Shown: piece by piece, positions 8,879 to 62,059 of the stretch
Numbering within the stretch: position 1 is the stretch's first letter
Layout: each line of letters opens with the position of its first letter
Source of the DNA: Bradymonadia bacterium
GTDB lineage: Bacteria > Myxococcota_A > Bradymonadia > UBA7976 > UBA1532
Assembly (NCBI GenBank): GCA_044376085.1
Contig: JBILLN010000017.1
Span: forward strand, 3,186-67,185
Reading direction: 5' to 3'
Length of the DNA stretch: 64,000 nucleotides
Program-made: the position numbers and the translations under genes
Notes under the pieces: model-generated
Told to the model about the DNA's origin: nothing
Seen by the model: only the letters and a program-made list of their open reading frames with translations
Database searches by the model: none

Positions 8879-8910
8879 GGGACTTCCGGTGGCGCTGGGC
8901 CGGCAGGGGT

Positions 8911-33051: not shown

Positions 33052-36000
33052 TCAGTCGTCGTAGGGTTCGCTGACGCGGCGGAACATGCGGAACTGGCTG
33101 ATGAGGTCGCTGAAGTGACCGAGCTGGGCCCGGCGCTGCTCGAGCTCGGTCAGCGCGGCGGGCTCCGTCGGGTTCTGCTCCTCGAGCGCCGCGAGGGCGG
33201 CGGCCTGCTCGTTGAAGTAGGTCAGCAGCGACACGCTGATGGACTCGCCGTCGACGACCTGGGGCGCCACGTACGTCACCCGGGTGATCGGGTCGAGGTA
33301 CTTGACGACGGGCGTGTCTTCGGGGAGCTCCCGCGCCTCACCGGACCCCTCTTCGAAGAGCATGATGTAGTCGCGGAAGTCGGTCTCGCCGTCGAAGGAC
33401 GAGGAGTTGTAGACGGCCGACAGACCGAGCGTGCGCCAGAGCAGGGCAGGGGGCACCTGAGCGTCGATGCGCAAGGGCATTTCGGTGGGCGACGCCGCCT
33501 CGGCGGGCGCGCCGGGGTCGGCCTCGAAGCCCCAGGTCTGCGGATCGACCAGGTTTTCGGCCGTGACCCGGCCCTCGTCGTCCACGACCAGGCCGGTGTG
33601 GCTCAGGGTGCCGATGCCGAGGTAGGAGAACAGCATGTCCTTGGCCATCTTCACGAGCTCGGGGCGGAACAGCCGGTAGTAGTTGATGGAGAACCGCCGG
33701 CTGTCACCGAAGTCCGTGACGTTGAAGAAGTTCGTCGAGTCGTCGAGCAGGAACTGGAGGAACGCCGACTTGTCGAAGAACGTCCCGATGTAGTCGATGT
33801 TGTAGAGGTACTGGTCGTCGTACCGGAGGAACTGGTCACGCCCGAGGCCCTCGGGCACGTCCACGTACTGCTCACAGGTCTGTCCGGTCTCCGGCAGGAA
33901 GACCCCGCGGGTCGCGTCGAGGCAGTGCCGACCGGGGACCGGCGTGCCCATCACGCGCGAGATGAAGTTCAGGGACTCGAGCGCGGCCTTCAGGTAGTCG
34001 CGGCCGATCGCGGAGGTCTGGTTGCCGTAGACGTAGTACCGGACAGCGTAGGTCAGGTCGTCGATGAGGCCGGCCTGCCGCCCCATGAACCCGTTGACGA
34101 ACCCGCTCTCCATCCGCCCGCGCCGGAAGTTGTTGAAGAAGTAGTAGTTCCAGTAGCGGCTGATCGAGTTGTGGACGACCTCGTGGTTGCTCGAGCCCTG
34201 GTCGAACATCTTGCAGCGGGACCGGAAGAGATACGCGTGCTCGCAGTACGCATAGGGCACCTCCCGGGCAGTATGGAAGGTGACGTCCGGATCGCTGATC
34301 GAGTCGATGATCGCGGCTGTATTGGCCTGGATGCCGGCCGAACGCTCGCGGACGACCTCGTGCACGTCGGCGTCCTTGCGGGCCTTGAGGGCGTCGAGGT
34401 CGTCGTTGAGGAGCGACGGCACGGCGTCGGCGCCGTAGACGTAGGCGACGTAGAGGCCGAAGCCCGGGATGACCGGGAGCTTCACGCTGTCCTCGAAGAC
34501 CTCGATCTTGCGCGCATAGGCAGCCTTCATGGCGGCGTGGTCGTACTTGCCGAGGCCCTTGGTGTCGCTGTTGAAGCGCCCGTGGTAGTCCATGATGGTC
34601 GAGTAGGTGTACTCGGGGACGCGAGCCTCCGCGCGGTCGTCGATACCGTTGTCGTCGTTGTCCCCCGGGGCGATCTCGGCGACCTTCTTCCAGTACTCGT
34701 CCTGGTAGTTCAGCGCGTCGACGGAGCCCTCGAAGTTGTGCGTGAGGCCCATCGTGTGGCCGATCTCGTGCAGCGTCACCCCGCGGTAGATCTCGCGGCG
34801 GAGAATCTGGAAGAGCTCCTCGGGATCCCGGTCCTTGAGCTCGAGGGCCAGGCCGATCACCGCGTCGTCCATCATCTCGAAGGTGTCGATGCGGTGGTTG
34901 CCGAGCCAGGCATTGCGCTTTTCCATGCGCTCCGCGTAGGCACGCAGATCGGTCGCTGCCTCGGTGGCGGCCTGCTTCAGGGCCGGGCTGGGGCGATCGG
35001 CGGGCTCGCCGGCGTTGAAGACCGGGGCCAGGAGCTGCTGGAGCTCGTTCGGCACCATCATCGCCGCGAAGTCCGGATCCTCCATGGCCCGGGCGAGGCG
35101 GGCCTGACCTTCGCTCTGGACGGCCCGCTCGAGGGTGGCCGGTTTCGCCAGGGCGCGGACCGCCTTGAACTCGTCGCCCATCGCGCGCGGATCGACGCGT
35201 TTGCCGGGCTGCACCGCCGAGGGGACGAGCCCCATCTGGTTGCGGGCCTTCTGGCGGCGGGCCTCCGCTTTGGCGACGGTCGCAGCGGACAGGCCCTGAG
35301 TGGCCGTCTCCGTCCCGCGGCTGCGCTCCAGCCAATCGGAGACGTTCTTGCCCTGGAGGAGGTCGGCGAGGGCCAGGTCGCCGTTGATGGCGCGGACGGT
35401 ATCGACGGCGTTGCGGGCGTAGTTGTCGAGGGCGGCGCCGTAAATGTTCGCGTTGGCGCTGATGATGCGGCCGTTCTCACCATCCGTGCCCGAGGGACCG
35501 TACCCGAGGGGGCCGTCGGGCTGCTGCTCGTTGACCCAGTTCAAGAAGCTGAACCGGACGTCCCCGACCTTCTGGTACTGGAAGTAGTCGGCCTCGCCGG
35601 CGTCGAGGGTGGCGCGCTTGAGGGCCGCGCAGACGCGGTGCAGGTTGCCGGGGACGAGGACCTTCCGGAGGCGGGCGACCGCCGTGGCGTCGAAGTCCGT
35701 CGGTTCGTCGCCGGACAGGATGTGGGTCTGCGGCTTCGTTTCGTCGGCGACGAGGGCCGCCTCGACGTGGGGGTAGAACGCGGGGTGCTCGGTGAGGTAG
35801 TCGACCACGCCCCGGACGCCGCAGGTGTTCTCCCGAATCTGGTACATCCCCCGATGCTGGAGTTCGTCGCCTTCGATGAAGTAGTGGCGGCCGGGCTGGG
35901 CCTTGCTGTAGGCCTCGATCTCCGAGCGGAGGGCGGCATCGTCCCGACCGGTCCCGGCCCGGACGGCGTCCATCATGGCCGCGTCCCAATCCTGCGCGAT

Positions 36001-37578
36001 GCGGACCGTCTCGGCCTTGAGGTCTTCGGGGAAGTCGATGTTCAGGTAGTAGACGATGGGCCGCGGCTTCCGGTCGGCCATCGGGATGGCCTTGGGCTGA
36101 CCGTCGGTGCCGGCGACGCGGACGGGCTTCCCCTCGGCGTCGAGCACGATGGTGGGCTGGCCGTCTTCGCCGGGCTCGGTCTCGAACTCGTAGGCCGTCT
36201 GCCAGATGGGGTGGATGTTGACGAAGTACTGGCGCTGCTCGTCGCGACCCGCGCCGGTCTGGCGGTCGTATCCGGGGCGCTCCGTGCGGAAGAAGCCATG
36301 GCGCTCGAACTGCTGGAAGCTCGAGTCGTCGCAGTCGCGCTCGGTGTAGTACCCGGGGGCGAAGTAGTTATCGAGCGCCGTGAAGAGGTCCGGATTGCAG
36401 GCCACCTCGGCGAAGGGCACGGAGCACTCGCCGGGGCGCCCGGCCTGCGCGTCGTCGAACGTGCGGATGCAGGCTTCGTTCTCGGTGCACTCCGAGTCGG
36501 CGAGGCAGTTCGGCTGGCAGAGACCATCGCGGCAGGCGTTGCCGAAGCTGCACGCCGTCGAATCCGTGCAGCCGCGGCACAGGCCCTCGACGCACGTCAG
36601 CCCGTCCGAGCAGTTGGCGTCCGACGCGCACTGGCAGTTGGCGTCGACGCAGACGCAGAGGCCCTCCTGACACTCGAGGCCGTCCGGGCAGGCCGTCCGC
36701 TCGTCGCAGCTCCGGGACGGATCGTTGCTGCCGAACCGCTTGAGCGGGACGGGCAGGAACATCGTCTTCAGCGGCTTGCCATCGTCGTCGGTGTGCAGCA
36801 GCAGGTCGTCGTACTGGGTCGGCTCGAAGCGGGCCGACTCGACGTGGTCGATCTGCCAGAACGAGTGGCGAAGCCGAACGTCGGAGGAGGCGCAGCCCCA
36901 CTCGCCGTAGAGATAGCCGCACGTGAAGTCGTCGCCGACGATCCGCCGTGTGGTCATTTCGATGTAGCCGGGCTCGATGACCGGCTGGTGGGGCGAGAAG
37001 CGGTACTCGGTGTCGAGGTCCAGGCGAACGACACCGCCGACGACGGAGTTCACGAAGTTCAGGAACTCCCCGAAGTCCGCGGCACCGCCGACCGCGGTGT
37101 CGACCCTGATCCGGAAGTACTCGCGCTCGTCCCAGGGACGGTCCGAACTGTTCTCGCCGATGACGTTCGACTGCTCGCCGGTCGCCGAGTTGTAGCTGCG
37201 CTTGATGTCGAAGTGGCTGACGACGTCGAACATCGCAACGGGGTCGCCCTTGTAGTCGGACCCGGGCAGCGTGCGGTCTTCGTCGATGCCTGGCACGCCT
37301 TCGTGCGTGCGGTAGGCGATGAGTTTGTCCTCGCGGATCTCCCAGCGAATCTTCTCGATGTCCGCCTCGAGGCCGACGAACGCGCCCGAGAGGCCGGTGC
37401 CCGGATCGGACTCGACGATGGTCTGCCGGTAGTACCACTCCTTCTCGAAGAGGGACTTGGACAGATAGCCGGGCTGAACGGTGTTGATGTCCCCGACGGG
37501 CTCCGCACAGGCGGCCGCCAGGAAGCTCACGGCGAGGGCGGCGAGGCCGCGGGTCGTGCGATTGAGATGAGCGATCAT
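33052..37578 (-). CDS. Giant metzincin-type zinc-metalloprotease lipoprotein (about 1508 aa) with an inserted myxobacterial cysteine-rich repeat module.
   Basis: The signal peptide with lipobox is MIAHLNRTTRGLAALAVSFLAAAC, with GAGGGAG upstream. The zinc site is HEIGHTMGLTHNF (HExxHxxGxxH), and the Met-turn is STIMDY. The Cys-rich insert is CDERTACPDGLECQEGLCVCVDANCQCASDANC... The start was set inside the 1701-aa ORF. Confidence 0.7.
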   Translation of the reverse strand: MIAHLNRTTRGLAALAVSFLAAACAEPVGDINTVQPGYLSKSLFEKEWYYRQTIVESDPGTGLSGAFVGLEADIEKIRWEIREDKLIAYRTHEGVPGIDEDRTLPGSDYKGDPVAMFDVVSHFDIKRSYNSATGEQSNVIGENSSDRPWDEREYFRIRVDTAVGGAADFGEFLNFVNSVVGGVVRLDLDTEYRFSPHQPVIEPGYIEMTTRRIVGDDFTCGYLYGEWGCASSDVRLRHSFWQIDHVESARFEPTQYDDLLLHTDDDGKPLKTMFLPVPLKRFGSNDPSRSCDERTACPDGLECQEGLCVCVDANCQCASDANCSDGLTCVEGLCRGCTDSTACSFGNACRDGLCQPNCLADSECTENEACIRTFDDAQAGRPGECSVPFAEVACNPDLFTALDNYFAPGYYTERDCDDSSFQQFERHGFFRTERPGYDRQTGAGRDEQRQYFVNIHPIWQTAYEFETEPGEDGQPTIVLDAEGKPVRVAGTDGQPKAIPMADRKPRPIVYYLNIDFPEDLKAETVRIAQDWDAAMMDAVRAGTGRDDAALRSEIEAYSKAQPGRHYFIEGDELQHRGMYQIRENTCGVRGVVDYLTEHPAFYPHVEAALVADETKPQTHILSGDEPTDFDATAVARLRKVLVPGNLHRVCAALKRATLDAGEADYFQYQKVGDVRFSFLNWVNEQQPDGPLGYGPSGTDGENGRIISANANIYGAALDNYARNAVDTVRAINGDLALADLLQGKNVSDWLERSRGTETATQGLSAATVAKAEARRQKARNQMGLVPSAVQPGKRVDPRAMGDEFKAVRALAKPATLERAVQSEGQARLARAMEDPDFAAMMVPNELQQLLAPVFNAGEPADRPSPALKQAATEAATDLRAYAERMEKRNAWLGNHRIDTFEMMDDAVIGLALELKDRDPEELFQILRREIYRGVTLHEIGHTMGLTHNFEGSVDALNYQDEYWKKVAEIAPGDNDDNGIDDRAEARVPEYTYSTIMDYHGRFNSDTKGLGKYDHAAMKAAYARKIEVFEDSVKLPVIPGFGLYVAYVYGADAVPSLLNDDLDALKARKDADVHEVVRERSAGIQANTAAIIDSISDPDVTFHTAREVPYAYCEHAYLFRSRCKMFDQGSSNHEVVHNSISRYWNYYFFNNFRRGRMESGFVNGFMGRQAGLIDDLTYAVRYYVYGNQTSAIGRDYLKAALESLNFISRVMGTPVPGRHCLDATRGVFLPETGQTCEQYVDVPEGLGRDQFLRYDDQYLYNIDYIGTFFDKSAFLQFLLDDSTNFFNVTDFGDSRRFSINYYRLFRPELVKMAKDMLFSYLGIGTLSHTGLVVDDEGRVTAENLVDPQTWGFEADPGAPAEAASPTEMPLRIDAQVPPALLWRTLGLSAVYNSSSFDGETDFRDYIMLFEEGSGEARELPEDTPVVKYLDPITRVTYVAPQVVDGESISVSLLTYFNEQAAALAALEEQNPTEPAALTELEQRRAQLGHFSDLISQFRMFRRVSEPYDD

Positions 37579-37592
37579 TGGTCGGGTCTCCC

Positions 37593-40500
37593 TCACTTCC
37601 CGAGGTCCATGACGGAGCGCAGGAGGCGCATGTCGTCGATGGTGCTGAGGTAGAACTCGAGGGTCTGGTCGGCGTTCTCGAGGTCGTTCTCGCGTTGCGG
37701 ATTCTCCGGATCGGCGTCGAAGGCGCGCTTGGCGGCGTTCCAGTCTTCGGCGGCCTGCTTGGCGACGCGGAGGAGTCGGTAGGCGACGGAGAGCCCGTCG
37801 CGGGTCTGCGGGGCCTGGAAGATCTGGCCGGTCTTGGGGTTCTCGAACGTCGCGACCAGCGCCCCGTCCGCGATGGCCCGATCGTCGCCCGAGCCCTTCT
37901 CCTGCACGGCGATGTACTCGTAGAAGTCGAGCTTGGTATCCCCGGGGCGCGAGTTGAGCTGGGTCCCGGCGAACAGCCAGTACCGCATGAGGTCGAAGGG
38001 CGTGTTCGTCCAGATCTGCACGGGCTCGATCTCGTCGCCGTTCTCGTCGACCGGCGCCTCGGAGTGGCCGGGCAGGCGGCCGTCGACGGTGGAGAAGTCG
38101 AACATCGTGGGGAAGGTGTGCACCGCCTCGCCCTTCTCGTTCTTCGTCGTCGACCACTGGAACGCCCGGTGTCCGAAGTTGCCGAGGCCGGCGTCGAGGA
38201 GGTCGAGCGTCAGGTCGAGCAGGCGGTCCTTGAAGACGTCGTAGAACCCGAAGCGGAGGTCGATCTCGCCCGCGGCGTTGACCGGCGGGCGGATGAAGAC
38301 GTTGCCGGCGTTCAGGAGCGGGATGATGAAGTTCTGCTTCTCGAAGAACGAGCCCATGTACTCGTACTTGGTCTGATAGTCGTCCGAGAGGTCGATGTAC
38401 ATGTCGCGGCCGACGCCCAGGGGGAGTTCCATCCGGTCACAGGCCTCGCTGCGGAAGTAGTCCGGGTTGAACCCGAAGGCCCAGTACGGGACGTAAGTGA
38501 TCTGCTCCTTGAGGGAGTTGCCCGTATTGGCCTTGCAGTACCAGCCCGGCTCGGGCGCGCCGACGACCTGCATCGTGAAGTCGGTGGCGATCATGGCGGC
38601 GCGCAGGAGGTCCTCGGTCAGGTCCATCGGGGTGCCGTCGCGATTCACGTACTGCTGGAAGAACGAGTAGTGCTTGTAGGGGTAGTTCAGGTAGGGCAGC
38701 AGGCGGCCCATGCGGCTGAAGAACCCGAGATAGAACTGGTACTCGTCCCGACCGCGGCGCCAGGAGTTGAAGAAGTAGTAGTTCCAGTAGCGCTGGATGG
38801 CCGAGCGGACGGCTTCTTCGTGGGTGGGGCCCTCGTCCCAGGTGCGGCACTTGGGGTCGCGACCGTTGAAGTAGTCGAAGCAGTAGAAGTACGGCACCGT
38901 CCGGTCGCGCCAGTAGCCCTCCGCGCCGGCGTCCGGGCTCTCCGCGAAGCGCTTGCCGTTCTCGCGGATGCCTTCGCGCGCCTCGGCGATGACCTCGTCG
39001 ACGAGACGGTCCTCGCGGCGGGTCAGGTTTGCGGTGCTGCCGCCGAGAAGCTGCGGGATCTTGGTGTAGTGGTCGTACTCGAGGTGGAGATCCAGCCGGC
39101 TGGGGACCTCCACGCTCTCGTCGAAGGCCTCGATGAGCCCCGTGTACGCGAACTTGATGGCGGCCTGGTCGTACTTGCCGAGGCCGTGGAAGTCCGAGTT
39201 GAAGCGGGCGCCGTAGTCCATGATCGAGGTGTAGCGGTACTCGGGCTGAAGGTGCTCGTCGCGCTCCTCGTCCGTGTCGTAGCGCTCCTCGAGGTCCCAG
39301 AACGTGTCGAAGTAGTTCAGCGCGTCGTGCGAGGCCCGGAAGTTGTGGGTCATGCCCAGCGTGTGGCCGATCTCGTGGAGCATCACGCCGCGGAAGATCT
39401 CCTTGCGGAGGTCCTCGTAGACCTCGACCGGGTCCCGCCCCTTGAGGCTGAGCGCCCGGCCGATGACCGCGTCGTCGTAGAACTCGGGCAGGGTGATGTT
39501 GCGCTCGATGTAGAAGTCGGCGCGCTTCTGCATGTGTTCCGAGATGGCGGCGGGGTTGGCGGCGACCTCGATGGTGGCCTCGAGGAGGTCCTCCGGCATG
39601 TCCTCGCCCTCGTGGGCGTTGGGGTCCCACTGGAACAGGCGGTAGAGCATCGACATCACGGGGCGGGGGAGCATGCGGGTGCGGAGCTCCGGGTTGTCCC
39701 GCAGGCGCTGCTTCATGAGGTCCATCGGATCGGGTCCGGCGGCCTGGGCGAACATGGGGTCGTCCGCCCGCTTCAACTCCGACCGCGTGACCATGTCGTG
39801 GGACATGCGGCTCAGGTCGACCTTGCCGTCGGCCGAGCGGAAGCTCTCGGGGTTGGCGGCCTGGAACGTCGAGAAACGCTGCTTCAACGCGGCGCGCTGG
39901 GCCTCCGTGACGGTGAGGGGCTGGTCGGCCACGCTCTTGTTCCGAAGGTCGAGCCAGTCGGTGATCGTCTTGCCCGAGGCGATGTCCTCGAAGGCGTCGT
40001 CGATGTCACCATTGAGGAAGCGGACGAGGTCCATCGAGTCCCGGGCGTAGCCGTCGACCGCCGCGCCGTACACGTAGGCGTTGCCGCTGATGATGCGGCC
40101 CGTCTCGGCGTCGGGGCCGGAGGGGCCGAAGCCGAGGGGACCGGAGGGCTGGTCTTCGTTGACCCAGTAGACGAAGTTCCAGCGAACGTCACCGACCTGC
40201 TGGTAGGTGAACTTCTCGAGGCCGCGGGCGCGGCTCTCGGCCGTCAGCGCGGAGCAGACGGGCTCGAGGTTGCCGGCGAGGATGTTGTTGGGGTTGCCGG
40301 CATCCACCGCGTCGCTGTCGAGGTCGTCGGCGTGCGTCACCGAACGGACGACGTCGACGAGTTCGGGGACGCGCTCGAGATAGGCGTCGATGACCTCGCG
40401 GCGGCAGTCGTTGTCGTCGATGCGGTAGGCCGCGCCGTGACCGGTCTGCTTCTTCAGCTCGGCGCGCAGGGCCTCGGGCGACTTGCCCTGAGCCGAGGCG

Positions 40501-41792
40501 ATGGCATTGACGAAGAGGCGGTCCCAGTCGGCGGCGATCTCCTGGGCGGTGCCCTTGAGGTCCTCGGGGAAGTTCACGTTCAGGTGGTAGACGATGGGCC
40601 GCACCTTGCGGTCCTTGACCGGGATGACCACCGGATTCCCGTCGGCATCCCGCTTCAGTTTGGGCTTGCCGGCCTCGTCACGGGCAATGACCGGCGCGCC
40701 CGTCTCGTCCTCGGTCATCTCCCACGCGTAGACCTGTTCCCAGATCTTGTGGTGGTTGGCGTAGAAGTTGCGCAGCTCGTCGTGCCCGTTGGGGAGCCGG
40801 CGGTTGGCGTCGTAGCGCTCCGTGCGGAAGAACCCGAAACGACCCATCTGGTTGTGGGTCAGCGGCTTGCAGTCCTCTCGGCGGTACTTGCCGCGGAGCT
40901 GCTCGAGCACGTCGTCGGTGCACTCGACGTCGACGTAGTCGACCCCGCCGTCCGGCTTGGGGACCGAGACGGTCAGCGAGTACATGATGGCCCCGTTCTC
41001 GTCGCGGACGAACTCGCGGTCGAGGTAGGAGCGCGGCTCGAACTGCGCGGCGTCCTCGGGGTCGATGCGCACGAAGCTGTGGCGCACCTTGACCTCGCCG
41101 AGACCGCAGGAGTTCCGGGTGTTCGTGGACGTCCGGTAGAAACCGTACTCGATGAAGCAGGTGTAGCCGCCGTCGGTGACGGTGTACGACGTCGTGAACG
41201 AGATCGTCCCGTCCTCCAGATCCGCCTGGAAGTGGTCCGGATTGGCGATCTCCGTCTCACGGGCCCAGTAGGTGCCCGTCGAGAACGTCGCGAACAGCTT
41301 GGCGAAGTCCTGACCGACCGCCGCCGCCGACGACCAGTCCGCCCGGAAGAAGTCGCGCTCGAACCAGGGACGCAGCGAGCTGTCCTCGTTCAGGACGTTG
41401 CTCTGGGTGCCGTTGGCGCTGTTGTAGTCGCGCACGATGTCGAAGTGTTCGACGCCGCTGACGCGCAGGATGGTGTCGCCCTCGAACGTGGCGCCGGGCC
41501 GCGTCTCGTCCTCGTCGAGGCCGCGGATGCCCTCGTGCGTCCGGCGGGCGTGCAGCGCATCGCCGTAGAACTCGAACTTGACCTTCTCGACCTTGCCCTC
41601 GAGGCCGACGAAGCCGATGCCGACGTCCGGCGGGACGTCGACGATCGTCTGGCGGTAGTACCACTCGCCATCGAGCATCGCCTTCTTGAAGTAGTGCGGT
41701 TGGACCCGGTTGACGTCCTTCACCTCTTCCGCACACGACGGCAGAAGAGAGATGAGCGCGGGTACGACGGCGGCCTGCCAGAAACGTCGCAT
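37593..41792 (-). CDS. Giant metzincin-type zinc-metalloprotease lipoprotein (1399 aa), a paralog of the downstream gene.
   Basis: The signal peptide is MRRFWQAAVVPALISLLPSC (lipobox). The zinc site is HEIGHTLGMTHNF, and the Met-turn is TSIMDY. It is colinear with gene 1 over most of its length (EWYYRQTIV, QSNV, FFRTER, LGFGPSGPD, RYWNYYFFN). Confidence 0.7.
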   Translation of the reverse strand: MRRFWQAAVVPALISLLPSCAEEVKDVNRVQPHYFKKAMLDGEWYYRQTIVDVPPDVGIGFVGLEGKVEKVKFEFYGDALHARRTHEGIRGLDEDETRPGATFEGDTILRVSGVEHFDIVRDYNSANGTQSNVLNEDSSLRPWFERDFFRADWSSAAAVGQDFAKLFATFSTGTYWARETEIANPDHFQADLEDGTISFTTSYTVTDGGYTCFIEYGFYRTSTNTRNSCGLGEVKVRHSFVRIDPEDAAQFEPRSYLDREFVRDENGAIMYSLTVSVPKPDGGVDYVDVECTDDVLEQLRGKYRREDCKPLTHNQMGRFGFFRTERYDANRRLPNGHDELRNFYANHHKIWEQVYAWEMTEDETGAPVIARDEAGKPKLKRDADGNPVVIPVKDRKVRPIVYHLNVNFPEDLKGTAQEIAADWDRLFVNAIASAQGKSPEALRAELKKQTGHGAAYRIDDNDCRREVIDAYLERVPELVDVVRSVTHADDLDSDAVDAGNPNNILAGNLEPVCSALTAESRARGLEKFTYQQVGDVRWNFVYWVNEDQPSGPLGFGPSGPDAETGRIISGNAYVYGAAVDGYARDSMDLVRFLNGDIDDAFEDIASGKTITDWLDLRNKSVADQPLTVTEAQRAALKQRFSTFQAANPESFRSADGKVDLSRMSHDMVTRSELKRADDPMFAQAAGPDPMDLMKQRLRDNPELRTRMLPRPVMSMLYRLFQWDPNAHEGEDMPEDLLEATIEVAANPAAISEHMQKRADFYIERNITLPEFYDDAVIGRALSLKGRDPVEVYEDLRKEIFRGVMLHEIGHTLGMTHNFRASHDALNYFDTFWDLEERYDTDEERDEHLQPEYRYTSIMDYGARFNSDFHGLGKYDQAAIKFAYTGLIEAFDESVEVPSRLDLHLEYDHYTKIPQLLGGSTANLTRREDRLVDEVIAEAREGIRENGKRFAESPDAGAEGYWRDRTVPYFYCFDYFNGRDPKCRTWDEGPTHEEAVRSAIQRYWNYYFFNSWRRGRDEYQFYLGFFSRMGRLLPYLNYPYKHYSFFQQYVNRDGTPMDLTEDLLRAAMIATDFTMQVVGAPEPGWYCKANTGNSLKEQITYVPYWAFGFNPDYFRSEACDRMELPLGVGRDMYIDLSDDYQTKYEYMGSFFEKQNFIIPLLNAGNVFIRPPVNAAGEIDLRFGFYDVFKDRLLDLTLDLLDAGLGNFGHRAFQWSTTKNEKGEAVHTFPTMFDFSTVDGRLPGHSEAPVDENGDEIEPVQIWTNTPFDLMRYWLFAGTQLNSRPGDTKLDFYEYIAVQEKGSGDDRAIADGALVATFENPKTGQIFQAPQTRDGLSVAYRLLRVAKQAAEDWNAAKRAFDADPENPQRENDLENADQTLEFYLSTIDDMRLLRSVMDLGK

Positions 41793-41907
41793 TCTTCACA
41801 CCTCGTGGGTTGGCATTCGAGCGGCCCCCCGTTTGGGACCCGCGCCACCCCCCCTGCATGCCGAAGCGTGCATGGATTGACGCGAATCAAGGGCCGGGGG
41901 CGACGTA

Positions 41908-41924
41908 GGCAACTCCCGTGCCGC
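41908..41924 (-). promoter_or_regulatory. Sigma-54 (-24/-12) promoter upstream of metalloprotease gene 2.
   Basis: The minus-strand sequence is GCGGCACGGGAGTTGCC, i.e. GGCACG-N4-TTGC with canonical GG/GC spacing. It lies about 115 nt upstream of the ATG at 41792. An A-tract is immediately upstream and two G8 tracts lie further upstream. Confidence 0.5.
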
Positions 41925-42014: not shown

Positions 42015-43028
42015 TCAGGTCTCGGGGACGGGGTCGGCAGCGGGTCCGCCGCTGAGGGCGGGATCGGGATCGCGGCTGGGGGCGCGGCGACCGTTCGGGC
42101 GGTGGCGGGCGAAGTACCAGGCCGCCGAGCAGGCGGTCTTGACCGTGTCGGCCACGCCCATGCCCTCCAGGTTGGGCCAGAACAGATTGCACTCGCCGCA
42201 GGGTTCGATCTCCTTGCGGCGACCCGTGCGGTGGTACTCGCGGTACTTCGAGGCGGTATTGCCCCGGTACACCTCGAGCACGGACTGCTCGCGCACGTTG
42301 CCCCAGGTGTACTCGCCCTCGTGGTCCTGGCAGCAGAGCGTGACCTTGCCGTCGCTCAGGATGTCGAGGCGGGTGATGTGTTCGCAGCCGTAACTCGGGA
42401 CGGGGAACGCGGAAGGGATGTCGCCCTTGTAGTTGAACTGCCCGACGATGAAGGGCTGCACCCCCATGCTTTCGCAGTAGTCCGAGAAGGCGTCCTGCTC
42501 TTCCAGCGTGGTGTCTTCCATCCGGACCATGCGGAACTGGATCTTGGGGGCGACCTTGCTGCGCCGGACGGGGTCGACCAGGTACTTCATGTTGTCGAGC
42601 GTGCGCTCGAGCTTGAAGCCCATGATGTTCTTGTACCGGACGGGATCGAGGGTGTTCAGGCTGATGGTCAGGCGGTCGACGCCCCCGATGGAGACGAGCT
42701 CGTCGATGCGCTTCGGCACGAGGCCGTAGCCGTTCGAATACAGGCCGAGGCGGGTCTTCGGCAGGCGACTGCGGATGTGCTGGAGCCGACCGATGATGCG
42801 GGGGTCGACGAAGGGCTCGCCGTTGAGGAACGGTTCGATCTCTTCGAGCGGGAAGGCCCGGCAGTCCTCGACGATCTTCTCGAAGAGGTCCTGGTCCATG
42901 TGGAACTTGTCGCGAGCCTTGAAGTTGTACGGGCAGAACGGGCAGGCGGCGTTGCAGCGGCTGGTCGTCTCGATGGAGACCATGCGCGGGTACTCACCGC
43001 CATCCATGACGCGTTGACGGAAGATCAT
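42015..43028 (-). CDS. Radical SAM enzyme with a SPASM/twitch-like C-terminal Cys-rich region.
   Basis: The radical SAM box is SIETTSRCNAACPFCPY (Cx3Cx2C). The C-terminal Cys residues are LCCQDHEG ... CGECNLFWPN. The composition (rich in K, N, Y, F) is atypical for this window. The start is at MIFRQRVMDGG, with GAGGA 7 nt upstream. Confidence 0.75.
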   Translation of the reverse strand: MIFRQRVMDGGEYPRMVSIETTSRCNAACPFCPYNFKARDKFHMDQDLFEKIVEDCRAFPLEEIEPFLNGEPFVDPRIIGRLQHIRSRLPKTRLGLYSNGYGLVPKRIDELVSIGGVDRLTISLNTLDPVRYKNIMGFKLERTLDNMKYLVDPVRRSKVAPKIQFRMVRMEDTTLEEQDAFSDYCESMGVQPFIVGQFNYKGDIPSAFPVPSYGCEHITRLDILSDGKVTLCCQDHEGEYTWGNVREQSVLEVYRGNTASKYREYHRTGRRKEIEPCGECNLFWPNLEGMGVADTVKTACSAAWYFARHRPNGRRAPSRDPDPALSGGPAADPVPET

Positions 43029-43071
43029 GTGGACGTCCTCGCGGAGAGTGAGATGAATCGAGGGCCGTCGA

Positions 43072-43086
43072 GCAAGATGCGTGCCC
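43072..43086 (-). promoter_or_regulatory. Sigma-54 (-24/-12) promoter upstream of the radical SAM gene.
   Basis: The minus-strand sequence is GGGCACGCATCTTGCT, i.e. GGCACG-N4-TTGC. It lies about 45 nt upstream of the ATG at 43028, within the 157-nt gap after the GT4 gene. Confidence 0.5.
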
Positions 43087-43185
43087 GGGACCCGAGGTTG
43101 CGGGTCGTCGTTTCCGGAGTACGCCTGCTCCAGATCGACCTCCCCCTGGCGCACGGATACCGCAGGTCGACGCGGGTATGCGAGG

Positions 43186-44361
43186 TCAACGCCGCGCGGC
43201 CAGCCGCTCCTCGTAGAAGGCCCGCAGGCGCTCGCCCCGCGCGTCCCAGGTCAGCGAGGCCGCCAGCGTCCGGGCGCCCCGGGCGAGACGTGCCCGGAGG
43301 TCCGGGGCCTCGAGCAGGCCGCGCAGGGCGCTCACCAGAGCGGGGACGTCGTCGGGGTTCACGAGGCGCGCGTTCTCGCCGTCGCGCAGAAGCTCCGTCG
43401 TATCGGGCAGGTCCCCGGCCAGCACGGCGCGGCCGGCCGCCAGATAGGTGAAGAGCTTCAGGGGCATGACCGTCGTCCCCTCCTCGGTGAGGGGGCGGCG
43501 GCTGGGCGGAACGAGCAGCACGTCGGCCGCCAGGTGGGCCTGCTCGAGGCGCTCACCCGTGAGAAATCCGAGGAAACGCACGTTCTCGAGGCCCTGGGCA
43601 GCGGCTTTCATCTCGCGCGCGTCGTCGGTCCCGTCGTGGCCGACGAAAACGAAGCGGACGTCCGGCATCCGGCGGGCGGCGTCGATGAAGAGGTCGCAGG
43701 CTTTGGCGCGCCCGAGCCGGCCCGCGTACACGGCGGTGGGCCCCTCGGAAAGTCCGAGGGCGGCGCGCGCCGAGGCGGGGTCGCGGTCCGTCGCGAGGAG
43801 TCGGGCATCGAACCCGTTGTACAGCGTGACGACCTTCTCCGGGGGCACGCCGTCTCGAACGAACTGCTCCCGGACGAGTCGGGAGTGGACGATCAGCCCG
43901 GCGAAGGCGCGCAGCGGCGTCAGGTGGCGAAAGACCGGGCGCACGGCGGGGAACTGGGCCGTCAGCGGGCGATAGGTCTCGAAGAAGAGCGGTCGTCGCG
44001 CGCCCAGCATCGCCAGGGACGGCAGGAGCGTGCGGGTGTGGACGAGGTCGTAGGGGCGTCGCAACGCCGAGCCCGTGGCCAGCGCGCCGCCGGCGAGCTT
44101 CGTCAGCAGGCGCGGGCCGCTCAGCGCGCCCGGAACGGGGCAGAGTCGAAACTCGCAGCCCGTGGCGTAGTGGGCCCTCAGGGCGTCGTGGAGCGCCGCC
44201 CGGGCGGAGGCGTCCCGGACCGCCGCGGCGTTCGGCGCAACGGGGAAGTACAGGTCGACGGCCACGCCCGTGCGGCCGAGCGCCGACAGGGCGTTGACGA
44301 ACTGAATCGTGTCCGCCCCGTGGCCGGGCAGGACTTCGTCGGTCAGAAAGGCGATGCGCAT
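43186..44361 (-). CDS. GT4-family glycosyltransferase (GT-B fold).
   Basis: The N-terminal domain is MRIAFLTDEVLPGHGADT. The C-terminal nucleotide-sugar domain is EEGTTVMPLKLFTYLAAGRAVLAGDLPD (an EX7E-like region). The start was set at MRIAFL inside the longer ORF. Confidence 0.7.
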   Translation of the reverse strand: MRIAFLTDEVLPGHGADTIQFVNALSALGRTGVAVDLYFPVAPNAAAVRDASARAALHDALRAHYATGCEFRLCPVPGALSGPRLLTKLAGGALATGSALRRPYDLVHTRTLLPSLAMLGARRPLFFETYRPLTAQFPAVRPVFRHLTPLRAFAGLIVHSRLVREQFVRDGVPPEKVVTLYNGFDARLLATDRDPASARAALGLSEGPTAVYAGRLGRAKACDLFIDAARRMPDVRFVFVGHDGTDDAREMKAAAQGLENVRFLGFLTGERLEQAHLAADVLLVPPSRRPLTEEGTTVMPLKLFTYLAAGRAVLAGDLPDTTELLRDGENARLVNPDDVPALVSALRGLLEAPDLRARLARGARTLAASLTWDARGERLRAFYEERLAARR

Positions 44362-44396
44362 GGCGCGGCGCGCATGCGACGATCGTGCCAGCGACG

Positions 44397-45374: not shown

Positions 45375-45527
45375 GGACCGCAGTCTGACGAACCGGGGTC
45401 GTCGTGTCACGGCTCGCGCGCGGCCGGCGCCTGCGGTGGCCACCCGAAGGCCACCCGGGGCGCCAGTTCGAGGCGTCCGGACCCACCCGCGCCCTCGCTT
45501 TCGGCGAGCGAAGGGCCCCGGACGCCC

Positions 45528-45542
45528 GGCCCGAGGTTTGCA
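45528..45542 (+). promoter_or_regulatory. Candidate sigma-54 promoter upstream of the ACP gene (one mismatch in the -24 box).
   Basis: CGGCCCGAGGTTTGCAA is GGCCCG-N4-TTGCA. The GG-to-GC spacing is correct and TTGCA is a perfect -12 box. GGAGG is 5 nt before the ATG at 45573. Confidence 0.25.
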
Positions 45543-57023: not shown

Positions 57024-57914
57024 TCAGCGGGCGATGACGCGGAAGTCGGCGGCCTGATCGAAGAAGCCGCCCTGGGTCGTCGCCGTCGGCGCGGCGGCGG
57101 ACTGCTCTTCGGCCGAGAGGCCGAGGGGCTGGGCCAGCAGGGCGCGGAACCAGGTGCGGACGTCCCAGGTGACCACGAGGACCTGGGCATCGGGCGCGAC
57201 CTCGACCTGCCCCGCGAAGAACTCGTAGGCGCGGGTGGAACGCACGTAGATGCGCTCGGCGGCGGCTTCGGCCGCACCGGACTCGGCCTTGCCGCGCGCA
57301 GGCGTGGGGGTCGGCTCGGCGGGCGTCGGTGTGGGTTCGGCGGGCGTCGGCGTGGGTTCGGCCGGAGTCGGCGTCGGCTCACCGGGAGCGTCGCCCGGGT
57401 TCGCCGGGGTCGGCGTGGGTTCGGCAGGCGTCGGCGTCGGCTCCGCGGGCGTCGGCGTCGGCTCGTCGTCGGCCTTGCCCCGTGCCAGCGAACCGACGTA
57501 TCCGCCCGTGACCTCGACGGAGGTGCCGTCGGCGTCGGGTCGCACCCGCACGAGCAGGCGATACCGCCCGGGCTCGGCCAGTGTCAGGGCGCCGTCCGGC
57601 ACGACGGTCGACGGAATGCCATCGACGAGGTCGAACGCGATGCCGACGGCGTCGCCCACCGCGTCGTCGTCGCCCTCAGGGAGGAGGTAGAGGTCCGCCT
57701 CGAAGTGGACGTCCGTGACGAGCAGGTCGTCGTACACGTCGGCGAGGCCCACGAGTTCGACCCGAGGGGCCAGCGTCAGGGGGGCCTCGTCACCGGTGGG
57801 GGCGGGCCCCGCCGCCTCGGCCGGCGTGCCCGAAACCGGTGCACGCGCCTCGTCGGTGCCACAGGCCGACAGGGCCAGGGCCATCAGCAGGGACGTGCCG
57901 AGCATGCGGTTCAT
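57024..57914 (-). CDS. Lipoprotein with an (EPTPTPA)n repeat linker.
   Basis: The signal peptide ends in the LSAC lipobox. About seven EPTPTPA heptads are central. The start overlaps the stop of the upstream sigma-54 activator gene by 4 nt. Confidence 0.6.
   Translation of the reverse strand: MNRMLGTSLLMALALSACGTDEARAPVSGTPAEAAGPAPTGDEAPLTLAPRVELVGLADVYDDLLVTDVHFEADLYLLPEGDDDAVGDAVGIAFDLVDGIPSTVVPDGALTLAEPGRYRLLVRVRPDADGTSVEVTGGYVGSLARGKADDEPTPTPAEPTPTPAEPTPTPANPGDAPGEPTPTPAEPTPTPAEPTPTPAEPTPTPARGKAESGAAEAAAERIYVRSTRAYEFFAGQVEVAPDAQVLVVTWDVRTWFRALLAQPLGLSAEEQSAAAPTATTQGGFFDQAADFRVIAR
57296..57475 (-). repeat. Tandem 21-nt repeats encoding the (PTPTPAE)n linker.
   Basis: Units such as ggcgtcggcgtgggttcggcg and ggcgtcggcgtcggctccgcg recur at 21-nt period. 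They also generate spurious plus-strand ORFs (57250-57690). Confidence 0.6.
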
Positions 57915-60900
57915 GAGTCGCCGACCTCGCGTTTCAGGTCACCCAATGCTGGGATCGCATGGATTATCTGCGAAAGTCGAGGTCTTTTCATCCCCAAACG
58001 CTCGGCGGCGCGGGTGATGTTGCCGCCGGAAGCGCGCAGGGCTCGTGCGATCGCCTCGAACTCGATGCGCTTCTTGAGCTCGAAGAGGCCGCCTTCCGAG
58101 GCGACGGCGCGATCGAGCCAGTCCGAATCGAAGACGCTGCCGGCGCCCTCCGGGACGGGCATGGGGGTGGCGAGGCGGGCGAGGGTCGCCGAGTAGTCGT
58201 CGTCGTCGTCCGAGCGCGGGCCGACCCGCGGGGGGACGACTTCGGCCGCGTCGCTCCTCGTCTCTTCGGGGTCCGGTTCGGCTGGATGCGCAGAGGGTGG
58301 TGCCGGGTCGGGGGGGCCGTCGGCGGGCGCCGGCGGCAGACCCCGGTGTTCGAGAAGCTCGGCGGCGGAGAGGACCGCCTGTTCGTCCGGCGGGCGGAAG
58401 AAGTCCCCGAGCTCGCGCAGTTCGCTCAGGCCGATGGTACCGCCGTCGGCGAACAACGCCGCGCTTCGGACCACGTTCTCGAGCTCCCGGACGTTGCCCG
58501 GCCAGTCGTGCTGCATGAGGCTGGCCAGGGCCTCGGGTGAGACCCGGATCGCCGGTGCGGCCGCGCCACCCGCCTCGGGGGCGGCCTGTGACCGCCGCGC
58601 CAGGAAGTGCTCGACGAGCAGGGGAATGTCCGTTCGGCGGTCCCGCAGAGACGGCAGCTCGATGATGACGCCGCGGAGACGGTAGTAGAGGTCGGCCCGG
58701 AACTCGCCGCGGCGGACCATTTCCTCCAGCGTGCGGTGCGTGGCGCACAGGACCCGGACGTCCACCGACAGCGTCTCCGAGCCGCCGACGCGCTCGAACG
58801 TCCCCTCCTGGAGAACCCGGAGCAGCGCGACCTGCGTATTCGGGGAGATGTCACCGATCTCGTCCAGGAAGAGCGTGCCGGTATCGGCGAGCTCGAACCG
58901 GCCCTTCTTGCGCGCCACGGCACCGGTGAAGGCGCCCTTCTCGTGACCGAAAAGCTCGCTGAGGAGCAGGGTCTCGACGAATGCCGAGCAGTTGACCTTG
59001 ACGAAAGGCCCCTCGGCCCGCGGGCTGTTGGCGTGGAGCGCGGCGGCGACGAGCTCCTTGCCCGTGCCGCTCTCTCCGCGGATCAGGACGATCGCATCGC
59101 TGCCCGCGACCCGGTCCAGTGCGTTGAAGACCGTGAAGAGGGCCGGGGCCCGGCCGAGAATCTGCGGATACCGCTCACCCCAGTGAGGCTGGTACCGCGG
59201 CGCGCGGAGGGCGCGGCCGTCGCCGGCGGGCGCGGGCGGGGCGAGCAGAGGGTGGTGGGGTCCGATGCCTGCCCGGACGCGTCGGAGCGCCGCCCCGATC
59301 TGACGGCGATCGGGGGCCTCCAGGTAGCTGGTGCGCAGCCCTTCGGGCAGGCGCCGGGCGACGCGCTCGATCAGTTCGGCGGCTTCCCCGAGGGCCTGGA
59401 GGGCTGCCGCGCGATCCCGGGCCTCCCACGCGAGCCGGGCCTCGAGGAAGAGGGCGCGCCACCGGGTCTCCTGGTCCCCGGCCGTCTGGGCTGCGGCCTG
59501 GGCGGCCGCGGCTTCCGCCCTCGCCGTGGCGGCATCCCCGCGTTTCCGGGCCAGCGAGGCCCGGCTCAGAAGGAGCGCCGCGGCCCGCATCGGATCGGGG
59601 GTCGAGGCCGGGCCCTCGGTCGCGCGGGCGAGCGTGGCCTCGGCATCGTCGAGCGCGTCGGCCTCGATCTGGAGATCGGCCAGGCCGATGAGCAGGGAGA
59701 GCCGGCTCAGCGCCTGCGCCGGCTCCGTCGCGGCCAGCGCCGCCCGGTAGTGCTGCTCGGCCCGCGCGCGGTCGCCGGCCGCCGCGGCCAGTTGCGCGTC
59801 CAGCAGGGCGCATTGCGCCTCGAGCGAGCGCAATCGGGCCCGCCGGATCTGGCTGCGGCTGATCTCGGTGAGGCGCCGTGCGCGCTCGGCGTCTCCCATC
59901 ACGAGGTACAGCTCCGCCAGGTTCAGGGCGGTGTGGGCGAGGTGATGCCCCTGGCCGAGCTTGCGGAACGCCTGCGTCGAGTGGTGGTACATCGCCAGCG
60001 CCGCGCCGAAGTCCTGCCGCCGGTGGAAGAGGACGGCCAGGTTGTCCAGGGAGATGGCCAGATTTCGGAGATCCCCGGCGTCTGCGGCCAGGCGTCGGGC
60101 CTCGGCGTAGCGTTCGGCGGCGACCTCGGCTTCTCCGCTCTGCAGCGAAACGATGCCGAGGTTGATGAGCGAGCGGATCTGCGGCGTGATGGCCCGCAGA
60201 CGTCGCGCCGACTCCAGGTTGTGCGTGAAGAGGGCCCGGGCGGTCTCGAGCCGCTCCCGGGCCAGGTGGACCTTGCCCAACGTATTGCGCAGCGACAGCG
60301 TCTCGGCGTCTTCGAGGTCGCCGGCGGCGGCGAGGCCCGCCTCTGCCCGGCTCTCGGCGCGCCCCGGGTCCCCCGCCTGCCACGCGATCTCCGCCGCCAG
60401 CGCCCCGGCCGCGTGCCGGAGGGCATCGGGCAGGGGACCGCTCTCGGCGGCCGCCACCGCGGCGGTGGCGCGGTCGACCCAGCCGGCGGTGAGGCAGAGG
60501 CGTGCGAGGCGCAAGTGGACCGTGGCGCGGTCCGCTTCGTCTCCGGCGAGGGCCGCGCGCTGCTCCAGGGCCTCCTCGGCAGCCCGGAACTCGCCCGTGC
60601 GCGCGTACAGTTCGGAAAGCCGGTCGAAGATGTCCCGACGGAGCGGACCGTCGGTCGACGTGACGATCTGCGTCAGCAGCTCGGCGGCACGGGCATGTGC
60701 GAACGCGGCCTCGAGGCGGTCCGCGGCGGCGAGCGCGAACGGGACGGCTTCGGCGGCCGCGGCGCCGGCGAGGTAGTGCGTCGCGACCTCCTCGGCCTCG
60801 ACACCGCGTCCCGCGAGCGGGACGAGGCGTTCGGCGATGTGGCGATGAAGGGCGGCCCGCTCCACGGGGTCGAGGGCCTCGTACCAGCACTCCCGCGCCG

Positions 60901-61984
60901 CGGCGGGCGCGAAGTGGAACCGCACTTCGCCGCGGTCCAGCACGCGGCCGACGAGTCCGCGTTCCTGCAGGGCCTGCAGCGCGACGAGGGGGGCGGAGCC
61001 GGCGGGCAGCACGTCCCGCAGTTGGTCGAGGGACACCGGCCGCCCCAGAACGGCGAGGGCGTCGAGGATCGGACGGTGCTCCGGCGCGACCTCGGCGAAC
61101 CGGCGGGCCCAGAGCGTGTCCGGGGAGTCTCCCAGGCCGGAGAGGAGCTGCCCGAGGGCCGCCGGATTCCCGCCGGAGGCCCGGAGCATGCGCTCGACGA
61201 CGGCGTCGGACTGGAGATAGGCCCTCAGCGCGTCGCGATCGAGGGGGCCCAGCACGAGCGCTTCGATCGCCGAGGAGGCCCGACCGAGCTCCAGCAGGGG
61301 CCGGGTGGTCTCCACCTCCCGAAACGACAGGACGAGCAGACCCCGGAACGCGCGCGACTCCTCGCCCCCCTCCGGCGCCCAGTCGAAGGCCGGATCCGCC
61401 ATGAGGTTCTCGATCAGGTAGCGGATCAGGGCCAGCGTCGCGACGTCCGCGCGGTGCAGATCGTGGAGGTGAAGCACCGGCGGGCGCGCCCCCATGAGCT
61501 CGACCACGGCGCGACGCACGACCTCGAAGAAGTGCAGCCGCAGGTCGTCCGCCCGGGCCGCCTGAGGCAGGTCTCCCGGACCCGGGAGACCCGCGATGAG
61601 GGACAGGGCGCGCTCCGTGGCCGGCGCCGGTCGACCGAGATCCGCGAGGGCGCCGGCCGCCTGCCCCAGGAGTTCCACGAGGGAGCCGTAGGGGCGATGA
61701 TCCGTCTGCCGACACCGGCCTTCGAAGACGACCTCGCCGGCGGCCCGCATCGAGCGCTTGAAGGCGTCGAGCAGGTGCGACTTGCCGATGCCCGCCGGAC
61801 CCACGACCAGCGCGCATCGACCCCGGCCCACTGCCCGGGCCTCGTCGAACAGACTCCGGAGGCGCGTGAGTTCGCGGGTCCGGCCGAACGGCGCCGCGTC
61901 CTCGCCGCGAGGGGGCGTCGGCGCACCCGCGGGGGCGGCCATCGCGGTGGCGGGCGAGCGGTCTCCTCGATCCTGGGGGCTCAC
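57911..61984 (-). CDS. Sigma-54-dependent transcriptional activator with an N-terminal STAND-type NTPase plus TPR sensor module (1357 aa).
   Basis: The N-terminal P-loop is ALVVGPAGIGKSHLL with a Walker B-like LHLHDLHRAD. A roughly 600-aa TPR region follows. The central sigma-54 AAA+ domain has GESGTGKE, EKGAFTGAV and LFLDEIGD. A C-terminal Fis-type HTH is present (NITRAAERLGMKRPRLSQ). The start is GTG at 61984 or the ATG at 61942. Confidence 0.75.
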   Translation of the reverse strand: MSPQDRGDRSPATAMAAPAGAPTPPRGEDAAPFGRTRELTRLRSLFDEARAVGRGRCALVVGPAGIGKSHLLDAFKRSMRAAGEVVFEGRCRQTDHRPYGSLVELLGQAAGALADLGRPAPATERALSLIAGLPGPGDLPQAARADDLRLHFFEVVRRAVVELMGARPPVLHLHDLHRADVATLALIRYLIENLMADPAFDWAPEGGEESRAFRGLLVLSFREVETTRPLLELGRASSAIEALVLGPLDRDALRAYLQSDAVVERMLRASGGNPAALGQLLSGLGDSPDTLWARRFAEVAPEHRPILDALAVLGRPVSLDQLRDVLPAGSAPLVALQALQERGLVGRVLDRGEVRFHFAPAAARECWYEALDPVERAALHRHIAERLVPLAGRGVEAEEVATHYLAGAAAAEAVPFALAAADRLEAAFAHARAAELLTQIVTSTDGPLRRDIFDRLSELYARTGEFRAAEEALEQRAALAGDEADRATVHLRLARLCLTAGWVDRATAAVAAAESGPLPDALRHAAGALAAEIAWQAGDPGRAESRAEAGLAAAGDLEDAETLSLRNTLGKVHLARERLETARALFTHNLESARRLRAITPQIRSLINLGIVSLQSGEAEVAAERYAEARRLAADAGDLRNLAISLDNLAVLFHRRQDFGAALAMYHHSTQAFRKLGQGHHLAHTALNLAELYLVMGDAERARRLTEISRSQIRRARLRSLEAQCALLDAQLAAAAGDRARAEQHYRAALAATEPAQALSRLSLLIGLADLQIEADALDDAEATLARATEGPASTPDPMRAAALLLSRASLARKRGDAATARAEAAAAQAAAQTAGDQETRWRALFLEARLAWEARDRAAALQALGEAAELIERVARRLPEGLRTSYLEAPDRRQIGAALRRVRAGIGPHHPLLAPPAPAGDGRALRAPRYQPHWGERYPQILGRAPALFTVFNALDRVAGSDAIVLIRGESGTGKELVAAALHANSPRAEGPFVKVNCSAFVETLLLSELFGHEKGAFTGAVARKKGRFELADTGTLFLDEIGDISPNTQVALLRVLQEGTFERVGGSETLSVDVRVLCATHRTLEEMVRRGEFRADLYYRLRGVIIELPSLRDRRTDIPLLVEHFLARRSQAAPEAGGAAAPAIRVSPEALASLMQHDWPGNVRELENVVRSAALFADGGTIGLSELRELGDFFRPPDEQAVLSAAELLEHRGLPPAPADGPPDPAPPSAHPAEPDPEETRSDAAEVVPPRVGPRSDDDDDYSATLARLATPMPVPEGAGSVFDSDWLDRAVASEGGLFELKKRIEFEAIARALRASGGNITRAAERLGMKRPRLSQIIHAIPALGDLKREVGDS

Positions 61985-62059
61985 GTCGGGCTCGCGGGCT
62001 TCTCGCGGTTCTCGCGGTCAGGGGGGCAGTGATGGTATGGGTGGGGTGGACGGGATGCA

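Follow-up and report, generated by a model that had tools for sequence, protein, structure and literature searches.

The window analysed here, a stretch of 64,000 nucleotides with about 70% GC that among public contigs comes closest to 'Myxococcota bacterium MAG.78' and to 'uncultured Myxococcales' MAGs, carries a row of co-directional genes on its minus strand. This row comprises an alpha/beta hydrolase gene (45374-44397), a GT4 glycosyltransferase gene assigned by Pfam (43186..44361), a BtrN-like radical SAM/SPASM gene (42015..43028, 337 aa) and two lipoprotein met-zincin genes in tandem (33052..41792), MP1 (41792-37593, 1399 aa) and MP2 (37578-33052, 1508 aa), both with a HEIGHT motif and both assigned to Pfam DUF4953 Met-zincin. 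A small acyl carrier protein gene (45573-45866) lies on the plus strand, and two Ser/Thr-kinase/AAA/TPR genes also run opposite to the minus-strand row. The stop codon of the glycosyltransferase gene is located 157 nt before the radical-SAM ATG, and the spacer between these two genes contains the sigma-54-type element S2 that is the subject of this analysis; three further elements resembling it, S1, S3 and S4, are found in other spacers of the locus.

The radical-SAM protein exceeds the Pfam cut-offs for PF04055 (Radical_SAM) and PF13186 (SPASM), and the CxxxCxxC cysteines C25, C29 and C32 are invariant in 20 homologs together with C215, C232, C233, C277 and C280. It reaches no NCBIfam equivalog cut-off, its best score being 92 bits against a cut-off of 380, and the named equivalogs considered (MoaA, PqqE, W-cofactor maturase and peptide maturases) were all rejected as falling below their NCBIfam cut-offs. 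Homologs number 213 in Myxococcota MAGs. In other genomes its orthologs form a pair with a GT4 glycosyltransferase, and in many cases the two genes overlap in the order rSAM->GT; this overlap, seen in relatives with 65-70% identity, is the reverse of the order in the window. Orthologs also occur next to flippases, epimerases, CDP-alcohol phosphatidyltransferases and inositol-phosphate enzymes, in clusters for polysaccharides or glycolipids. L079, L080, L081 and the gene contexts of P0012 and P0078 were among those examined for this pairing, and in L081 a Ser/Thr-kinase/AAA gene like those of the window comes after the rSAM-GT pair, with an FHA-domain enhancer-binding protein 6 kb upstream. Because of its kinship with BtrN, its pairing with GT4 enzymes and its neighbours in polysaccharide and glycolipid clusters, a carbohydrate or glycolipid role of the radical-SAM protein is likely.

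Two putative activators of sigma-54 polymerase are encoded in the same window. A STAND-type enhancer-binding protein (57911..62017, minus strand, 1368 aa) bears the GAFTGA motif and matches AAA_16, TPR, Sigma54_activat and HTH_8; it is unusually large, an N-terminal STAND-like AAA_16 ATPase and TPR being fused to Sigma54_activat and HTH_8. The second is an open reading frame (7082..9787, minus strand) with GETGTGKE, ESELFGH and GAFTGA, called as an enhancer-binding protein from its motifs alone. The rpoN gene was not found within the 64-kb window. Sigma-54 is expected in the host from its phylum-level distribution (PMC12316311), and the two GAFTGA proteins of the window likewise point to a sigma-54 capacity.

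The element S2 (43071..43086, minus strand) reads GGGCACGCATCTTGCT. On this strand, the GG of the -24 element occupies 43085-43084 and the GC of the -12 element 43073-43072, with a gap of exactly 10 nt. TGGCACG-N4-TTGC(T/A) is the consensus applied to Myxococcus xanthus promoters with experimental validation (PMC7910581); of the 12 positions that TGGCACG-N4-TTGCW specifies, S2 agrees at 11, and the sole mismatch is a G for T at the first one. It is situated in non-coding DNA and faces the start of the radical-SAM gene (ATG at 43028-43026), from which its -12 C is separated by 43 nt, and a GAGGA Shine-Dalgarno sequence at 43040-43036 lies in between, 7 nt before the ATG. The original prediction, which had proposed a sigma-54 promoter about 45 nt before this ATG with a GAGGA Shine-Dalgarno sequence between the two, had placed the motif on the minus strand (43086-43071 here) correctly to within 1 nt. 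From the canonical 12-nt spacing, transcription is predicted to start near 43060, which would leave the radical-SAM mRNA a CT-rich 5' leader of about 32 nt (43029..43060, minus strand) including GAGGA.

All close orthologs begin with MIFRQRV and a 100%-identical database protein has 337 aa, which marks ATG 43028 as the true start. Two candidate readings that would place S2 in coding DNA were rejected: an extension of the radical-SAM gene from GTG 43154, in view of the MIFRQRV N-termini of the orthologs and of frames that are not conserved, and a 54-codon ORF spanning 43189-43025 from the glycosyltransferase stop to the radical-SAM ATG, whose frame is not conserved either. Indeed, indels of 12, 23, 28, 1 and 3 nt in the spacers of relatives shift the frames of both spacer ORFs, and in L072 the 54-codon ORF ends elsewhere than at the ATGA overlap.

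The core motif GGCACG-N4-TTGC is rare. The window holds two exact copies of it, at 43072-43085 and 41909-41922 on the minus strand, against an expectation of 0.25 from shuffled sequences and 0.28 from composition, and only 3 of 100 shuffles gave two exact matches. The assertion that two such matches are unlikely to be chance is borne out by these figures, and the background scan proposed along with it, run on 1.14 Mb of related DNA, returned about 12 occurrences per Mb, a count in which genuine promoters are included. A position weight matrix (PWM) was also built from 152 aligned and curated deltaproteobacterial sigma-54 sites (S2 Table of PMC12316311); these training sites come from Desulfovibrionales, not from Myxococcota, and many of them are RegPrecise predictions. 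With this Desulfovibrionales-trained matrix S2 scores 14.2 bits, which ranks second among 127,964 window positions and corresponds to the 35th percentile of the 152 training sites, within the range of genuine sites. S3 ranks third (12.8 bits) and S4 fifth (11.7 bits), so that three of the five top matches of the window lie in gene-facing spacers of the S2 locus, against a baseline of 7%. The top match itself, GTTGGTCCGACGATTGCTG at 22528-22546 on the plus strand (14.7 bits), is located just past a plus-strand stop codon, within an apparent minus-strand ORF and with no gene start ahead, and is probably a chance or non-canonical site.

Positional bias was assessed by scoring GG-N10-GC sites and counting as promoter-positioned those in intergenic DNA that have a gene start no more than 250 nt ahead of them; this test was limited to 23 high-GC loci (408 kb), as genes were called from GC3, a method that fails below about 67% GC. 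In these loci, 7% of all positions and 6-8% of sites scoring 8 or less are promoter-positioned. The share reaches 12% among sites with a score of 9, 10 of 18 among those scoring 10 and 4 of 4 among those scoring 11, several of the top-scoring sites being homologous copies; counted as independent families outside the tested locus, it amounts to 3 of 11. The bias toward gene starts that the original prediction had called for is thus seen in related DNA as an enrichment that grows with score. All of the in silico checks put forward with that prediction favour it. The match at S2 is not due to chance.

A relative of the radical-SAM protein is encoded at 71 genomic loci, among which only the closest share the gene order of the window. 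Eight further syntenic sequences from uncultured Myxococcota (L001, L072, L083, L084, L085, L082, L002 and L086) were assembled from metagenome contigs and from members of a 90%-identity protein cluster, and six of them have a sigma-54-type site in the spacer between the glycosyltransferase and radical-SAM genes. The S2 16-mer is identical (16/16) in L001, whose radical-SAM protein is 96-98% identical to that of the window, and again in L085, with 90-92% identity. L072 (96-98%) has GGGCATGCATCTTGCT, which keeps 15 of 16 positions and differs by a C to T that is a common natural variant at that place, and L082 (90-92%) has CGGCATGCATCTTGCG, which keeps 13 of 16. Neutral divergence between the window and these lineages is near saturation (GC3 near 0.93): identity at fourfold-degenerate sites ranges from 0.57 to 0.69 over the compared lineages, and spacer identity from 0.46 to 0.67. 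The 16/16 match of L085 contrasts with an identity of 0.51 over the remaining spacer (P = 2e-5), and the 13/16 kept in L082 corresponds to P = 0.004. The positions that are invariant in all site-bearing lineages are GGC, G7, AT, TTGC and the 10-nt spacing between GG and GC, whereas the six variable positions of S2 carry less matrix information (0.56 versus 1.10 bits, P = 0.06). By comparison, the stretch from the -12 element to the ATG measures 33-95 nt across lineages, accepts indels, is free to vary in sequence and is barely alignable; such variable DNA after a conserved S2 is what one would expect where a promoter precedes a leader that is under no constraint. What the analysis shows for S2 is its selective conservation as well as its sequence match, its rarity and its position; of these, the conservation seen on comparing lineages is decisive.

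In L083 and L084, whose radical-SAM proteins are also 96-98% identical to that of the window, the ancestral position is now a decayed GG-N11-GC, while 26 nt downstream there is a new site, TGGCGCGAATTTTGCT (L083:7990-8020 and L084:3330-3360, homologous to window positions of about 43090-43040). This new site scores 14.5 bits and is located 38 nt from the ATG, compared with 43 nt for S2 in the window. Judging by this apparent turnover, selection acts on having a sigma-54 site and not on a particular string. The ATGGCGCGAATTTTGCTC of the new site has been miscalled as a start codon, which gives protein P0122 a 'MARILLS...' extension. L002 and L086, with 88% identity, have no S2-type site; their spacer is reduced to 70 nt, against 145-171 nt in the other lineages, and S2 is accordingly dispensable in this lineage.

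Outside the syntenic group, sigma-54 sites are not enriched upstream of about 65 distant radical-SAM orthologs, whose median best score is equal to that of the control, and family-wide sigma-54 control of this radical-SAM family was rejected on that ground. Over 75 orthologs, upstream regions are no better than random windows, except for the S2 clade and two cases. Only isolated non-syntenic candidates are seen, namely L003 (13.6 bits, with GA at -12) and L029 (12.4 bits). Near-perfect or perfect sigma-54 sites, TGGCACGGTTGTTGCT (L054:2354, L056:12135 and L057:12151) and GGCACGGCGGTTGC (L019:12637 and L063:4231), recur in some non-syntenic loci 1-2.6 kb downstream of the radical-SAM start.

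Besides S2, the spacer holds a GCRACC box, GCAACC in the window (43096..43101, minus strand), 9-14 nt upstream of the -24 element. Its GC.ACC (alignment columns G95, C96, A98, C99 and C100) is invariant in all six S2-bearing sequences, in the midst of barely alignable spacer. Further upstream, a block from about -48 to -105 (43165-43108) is conserved throughout the 96-97% clade and contains the imperfect dyad TCTGGAG-N8-CTCCGGA (43113..43134, minus strand). Sites of enhancer-binding proteins are usually found 80-150 bp upstream; the centre of this dyad is about 60 nt upstream of the predicted S2 start, and the dyad is not recognisable in the alignment of the L082/L085 lineage. We regard it, with low confidence, as a candidate enhancer-binding-protein site. 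The window has no second copy of it, S1, S3 and S4 lack it, and a common enhancer motif upstream of the four elements was rejected on this account. TGCKCCAG was likewise discarded as a shared enhancer: it occurs 14 times against 5.7 expected, but its copies are spread over the window, apparently in coding sequence. A 7-nt inverted repeat (43135-41/43164-70) was set aside as window-specific and not conserved.

The S2 spacer contains no sigma-70 consensus, no intrinsic terminator and no Rfam family at E <= 1. No fold of the leader is common to the lineages (z-scores of -0.4, +0.4 and +0.4), the only strong one lying within an insertion specific to L072, and no conserved fold that would sequester the radical-SAM Shine-Dalgarno sequence was found. 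The CT-rich character of the leader (43043-43056, minus strand) recurs in the homologous leaders of L001 and L072, with no conservation of sequence and in a 70% GC genome; CT-rich tracts at sigma-54 promoters are reported to be linked to translational insulation (bioRxiv 10.1101/086108).

S3 (41908..41923, minus strand, CGGCACGGGAGTTGCC) is located 116 nt upstream of the metalloprotease ATG at 41792 and is found in all eight syntenic sequences with scores of 12.1-12.8 bits (P ~2e-4). It is the first promoter of the original prediction, placed there before the metalloprotease genes, and its conservation in every syntenic relative speaks for that proposal. Its leader of about 105 nt (41800-41900, minus strand) holds blocks kept in all relatives, GCCCCCGGCCCTTGA and, before the ATG, CCCACGAGGT, as well as a hairpin-like GCACGC-loop-GCGTGC block that is kept in all of them too; these blocks suggest a regulated 5' UTR. 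S4 (45527..45542, plus strand, CGGCCCGAGGTTTGCA) sits 30 nt before the acyl carrier protein ATG at 45573, in the spacer between this gene and the oppositely oriented hydrolase gene, and is present in every syntenic sequence that reaches this region (P ~0.002). The acyl carrier protein gene has a GGAGG Shine-Dalgarno sequence. A conserved tandem repeat, two copies of GGCCACCCG at 45443-45468, precedes the -24 element of S4 by about 60-85 nt and looks like a candidate site for an enhancer-binding protein.

S1 (44375..44390, minus strand, TGGCACGATCGTCGCA), between the hydrolase stop at 44397 and the glycosyltransferase ATG at 44361, is a weak sigma-54-like sequence. It scores only 9.6 bits, has TCGC in place of TTGC and is kept in 5 of the 8 syntenic sequences, and as a sigma-54 element it is doubtful. 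Transcription from it is predicted to begin about 3 nt ahead of the ATG of the glycosyltransferase gene, which has no Shine-Dalgarno sequence, and a nearly leaderless mRNA from S1 is conceivable. A conserved site that points toward the hydrolase from within the acyl carrier protein gene (GATGGAACTCGCGCTGCAG in L002, L083 and L084; AATGGAACTCGCGTTGCAG in L082) was rejected because the encoded LQREFH constrains it, and in the window it is degraded.

With good though not complete confidence, we interpret S2 as a genuine sigma-54-dependent promoter restricted to one clade of uncultured Myxococcota. It belongs to a well-known promoter class and is not a new kind of element. At characterised sigma-54 promoters, the holoenzyme stays closed on GG and GC until an enhancer-binding ATPase opens it. 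By analogy, sigma-54 RNA polymerase would bind the GG at 43085-84 and the GC at 43073-72 of S2 as a closed complex, to be remodelled by an enhancer-binding ATPase that is bound upstream; the transcript would begin near 43060 and have the leader of about 32 nt with its GAGGA ribosome-binding site. The binding of sigma-54, the position of the start, the activator with its binding site and the length of the transcript are matters of inference. Since S2 sits inside a co-directional row (hydrolase, GT4, BtrN-like radical SAM and two met-zincins), it would be an internal, separately gated promoter, and because no terminator is predicted between the genes it may be an internal promoter in a longer transcript. 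As originally proposed, the radical-SAM and metalloprotease genes may be separately driven units. S2, S3 and S4 make three well-supported predicted sigma-54 promoters in the locus.

It is quite improbable that the S2 16-mer is the site of another factor, or a promoter of another type such as one for an ECF sigma factor, with a coincidental likeness to sigma-54 sites. Myxobacteria do encode many alternative sigma factors, the GCRACC box is a further conserved piece of the spacer, and a CCGGAAC resembling an ECF -35 element is present in the 96-97% clade. However, the positions that remain invariant are exactly those relevant to sigma-54 (GG, GC, TTGC and the 10-nt spacing) while others vary, the putative ECF -10 region is not conserved, and the spacer offers no sigma-70 consensus. 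Furthermore, L083 and L084 replaced their decayed site with a different sequence that fits sigma-54 at 14.5 bits, and a coincidence would not recur. Weaker still is the case for a functionless chance match that persists through common descent because the lineages have diverged little. A stretch of 64 kb could contain one or two such matches, as the 3 shuffles in 100 with two matches indicate, and neither the L002/L086 lineage nor most radical-SAM orthologs have a site. Yet the motif is kept at 16/16, 15/16, 16/16 and 13/16 where neutral sites are near saturation and where the adjoining leader, with its indels, can hardly be aligned, and gene-facing spacers of this one locus hold three of the five best PWM matches of the window against 7% expected by position; we hold this explanation to be highly unlikely.

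Sigma-54 could also bind S2 mainly in a non-productive or regulatory manner, as a roadblock or an insulator, the radical-SAM gene being expressed by read-through from the glycosyltransferase gene. There is indeed no terminator between these two genes, and in L002/L086 as well as in the rSAM->GT pairs elsewhere they are tightly linked and presumably co-transcribed. Widespread non-canonical binding of sigma-54 in E. coli and Salmonella is cited in PMC7910581, and the CT-rich leader of three lineages recalls the insulation link at sigma-54 promoters reported in bioRxiv 10.1101/086108. Against this stand the position and orientation of S2 and its distance to a good Shine-Dalgarno sequence, which are those of a standard promoter, the similar distance to the ATG that the turnover site keeps (38 versus 43 nt), and the missing conserved fold over the Shine-Dalgarno sequence. 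We consider this possibility very improbable and retain S2 as a productive sigma-54 promoter.

The most interesting aspect of S2 is evolutionary, in that the site is intact, relocated or deleted in close relatives. A broader reading, which we put forward tentatively and judge somewhat less likely than its contrary, is that the envelope-remodelling genes of this locus form three blocks (the acyl carrier protein; the hydrolase, GT4 and BtrN-like radical SAM; the two giant lipoprotein met-zincins), that almost every gene block has its own sigma-54 promoter, possibly under different enhancer-binding proteins, and that the lineages form a natural series in promoter evolution: some close relatives retain the radical-SAM promoter intact, one has it shifted by 26 nt, and a third has lost it by deletion. 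The lineage series of intact, relocated and deleted sites is a small and clean example of sigma-54 promoter turnover, and if the natural-series reading holds it would provide a direct test of the gain, movement and loss of individually gated internal sigma-54 promoters in an operon-like cluster. If S2 is a sigma-54 promoter, the expression of a BtrN-like radical-SAM enzyme would be tied to signal-dependent control by sigma-54 and enhancer-binding proteins in uncultured Myxococcota, and the neighbouring glycosyltransferase and secreted or lipoprotein metalloproteases would likewise come under such control, which agrees with the proposal that sigma-54 controls the cell exterior. It would also suggest a promoter to replace, or an activator to supply, for heterologous expression of the locus.

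Among known systems, S2 resembles the Nla28- and Nla6-dependent promoters of M. xanthus (PMC7910581), with which it has in common the consensus, the invariant GG and GC, the fixed spacing and the phylum. M. xanthus has many enhancer-binding proteins, and internal promoters in co-directional gene rows are reported to be common there (PMC7910581); S2 is likewise internal. While most of the described M. xanthus sigma-54 promoters are intragenic (PMC7910581), S2 is intergenic, and no pair of Nla28-type half-sites (CT[C/G]CG[C/G]AG) is evident at S2, unlike at the M. xanthus Nla28 promoters. The latter are experimentally validated, whereas S2 comes from an uncultured lineage and is a predicted promoter.

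The closest solved relative of the radical-SAM protein is BtrN (PDB 4m7t; E = 9e-21 over the core), a radical-SAM 2-deoxy-scyllo-inosamine dehydrogenase that acts on an aminocyclitol substrate. Both proteins have an N-terminal CxxxCxxC core and a C-terminal SPASM/twitch auxiliary-cluster domain, but only about the first 120 residues align well. Carbohydrate-pathway neighbours are a further point of likeness. At the level of the locus, sigma-54 has been predicted to be a 'controller of the bacterial exterior' (PMC3162934), and predicted sigma-54 sites are enriched at GT group-1 genes (COG0438) in Myxococcia (PMC12316311). Both studies are genome-wide predictions, and the gene family and the locus of S2 are not known to be described in them. 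With its GT4 glycosyltransferase, sugar-type radical SAM, acyl carrier protein, hydrolase and lipoprotein metalloproteases, the S2 locus resembles such envelope control by sigma-54, and each of its envelope or exterior gene blocks is preceded by a sigma-54-type site, which matches the predictions of exterior control.
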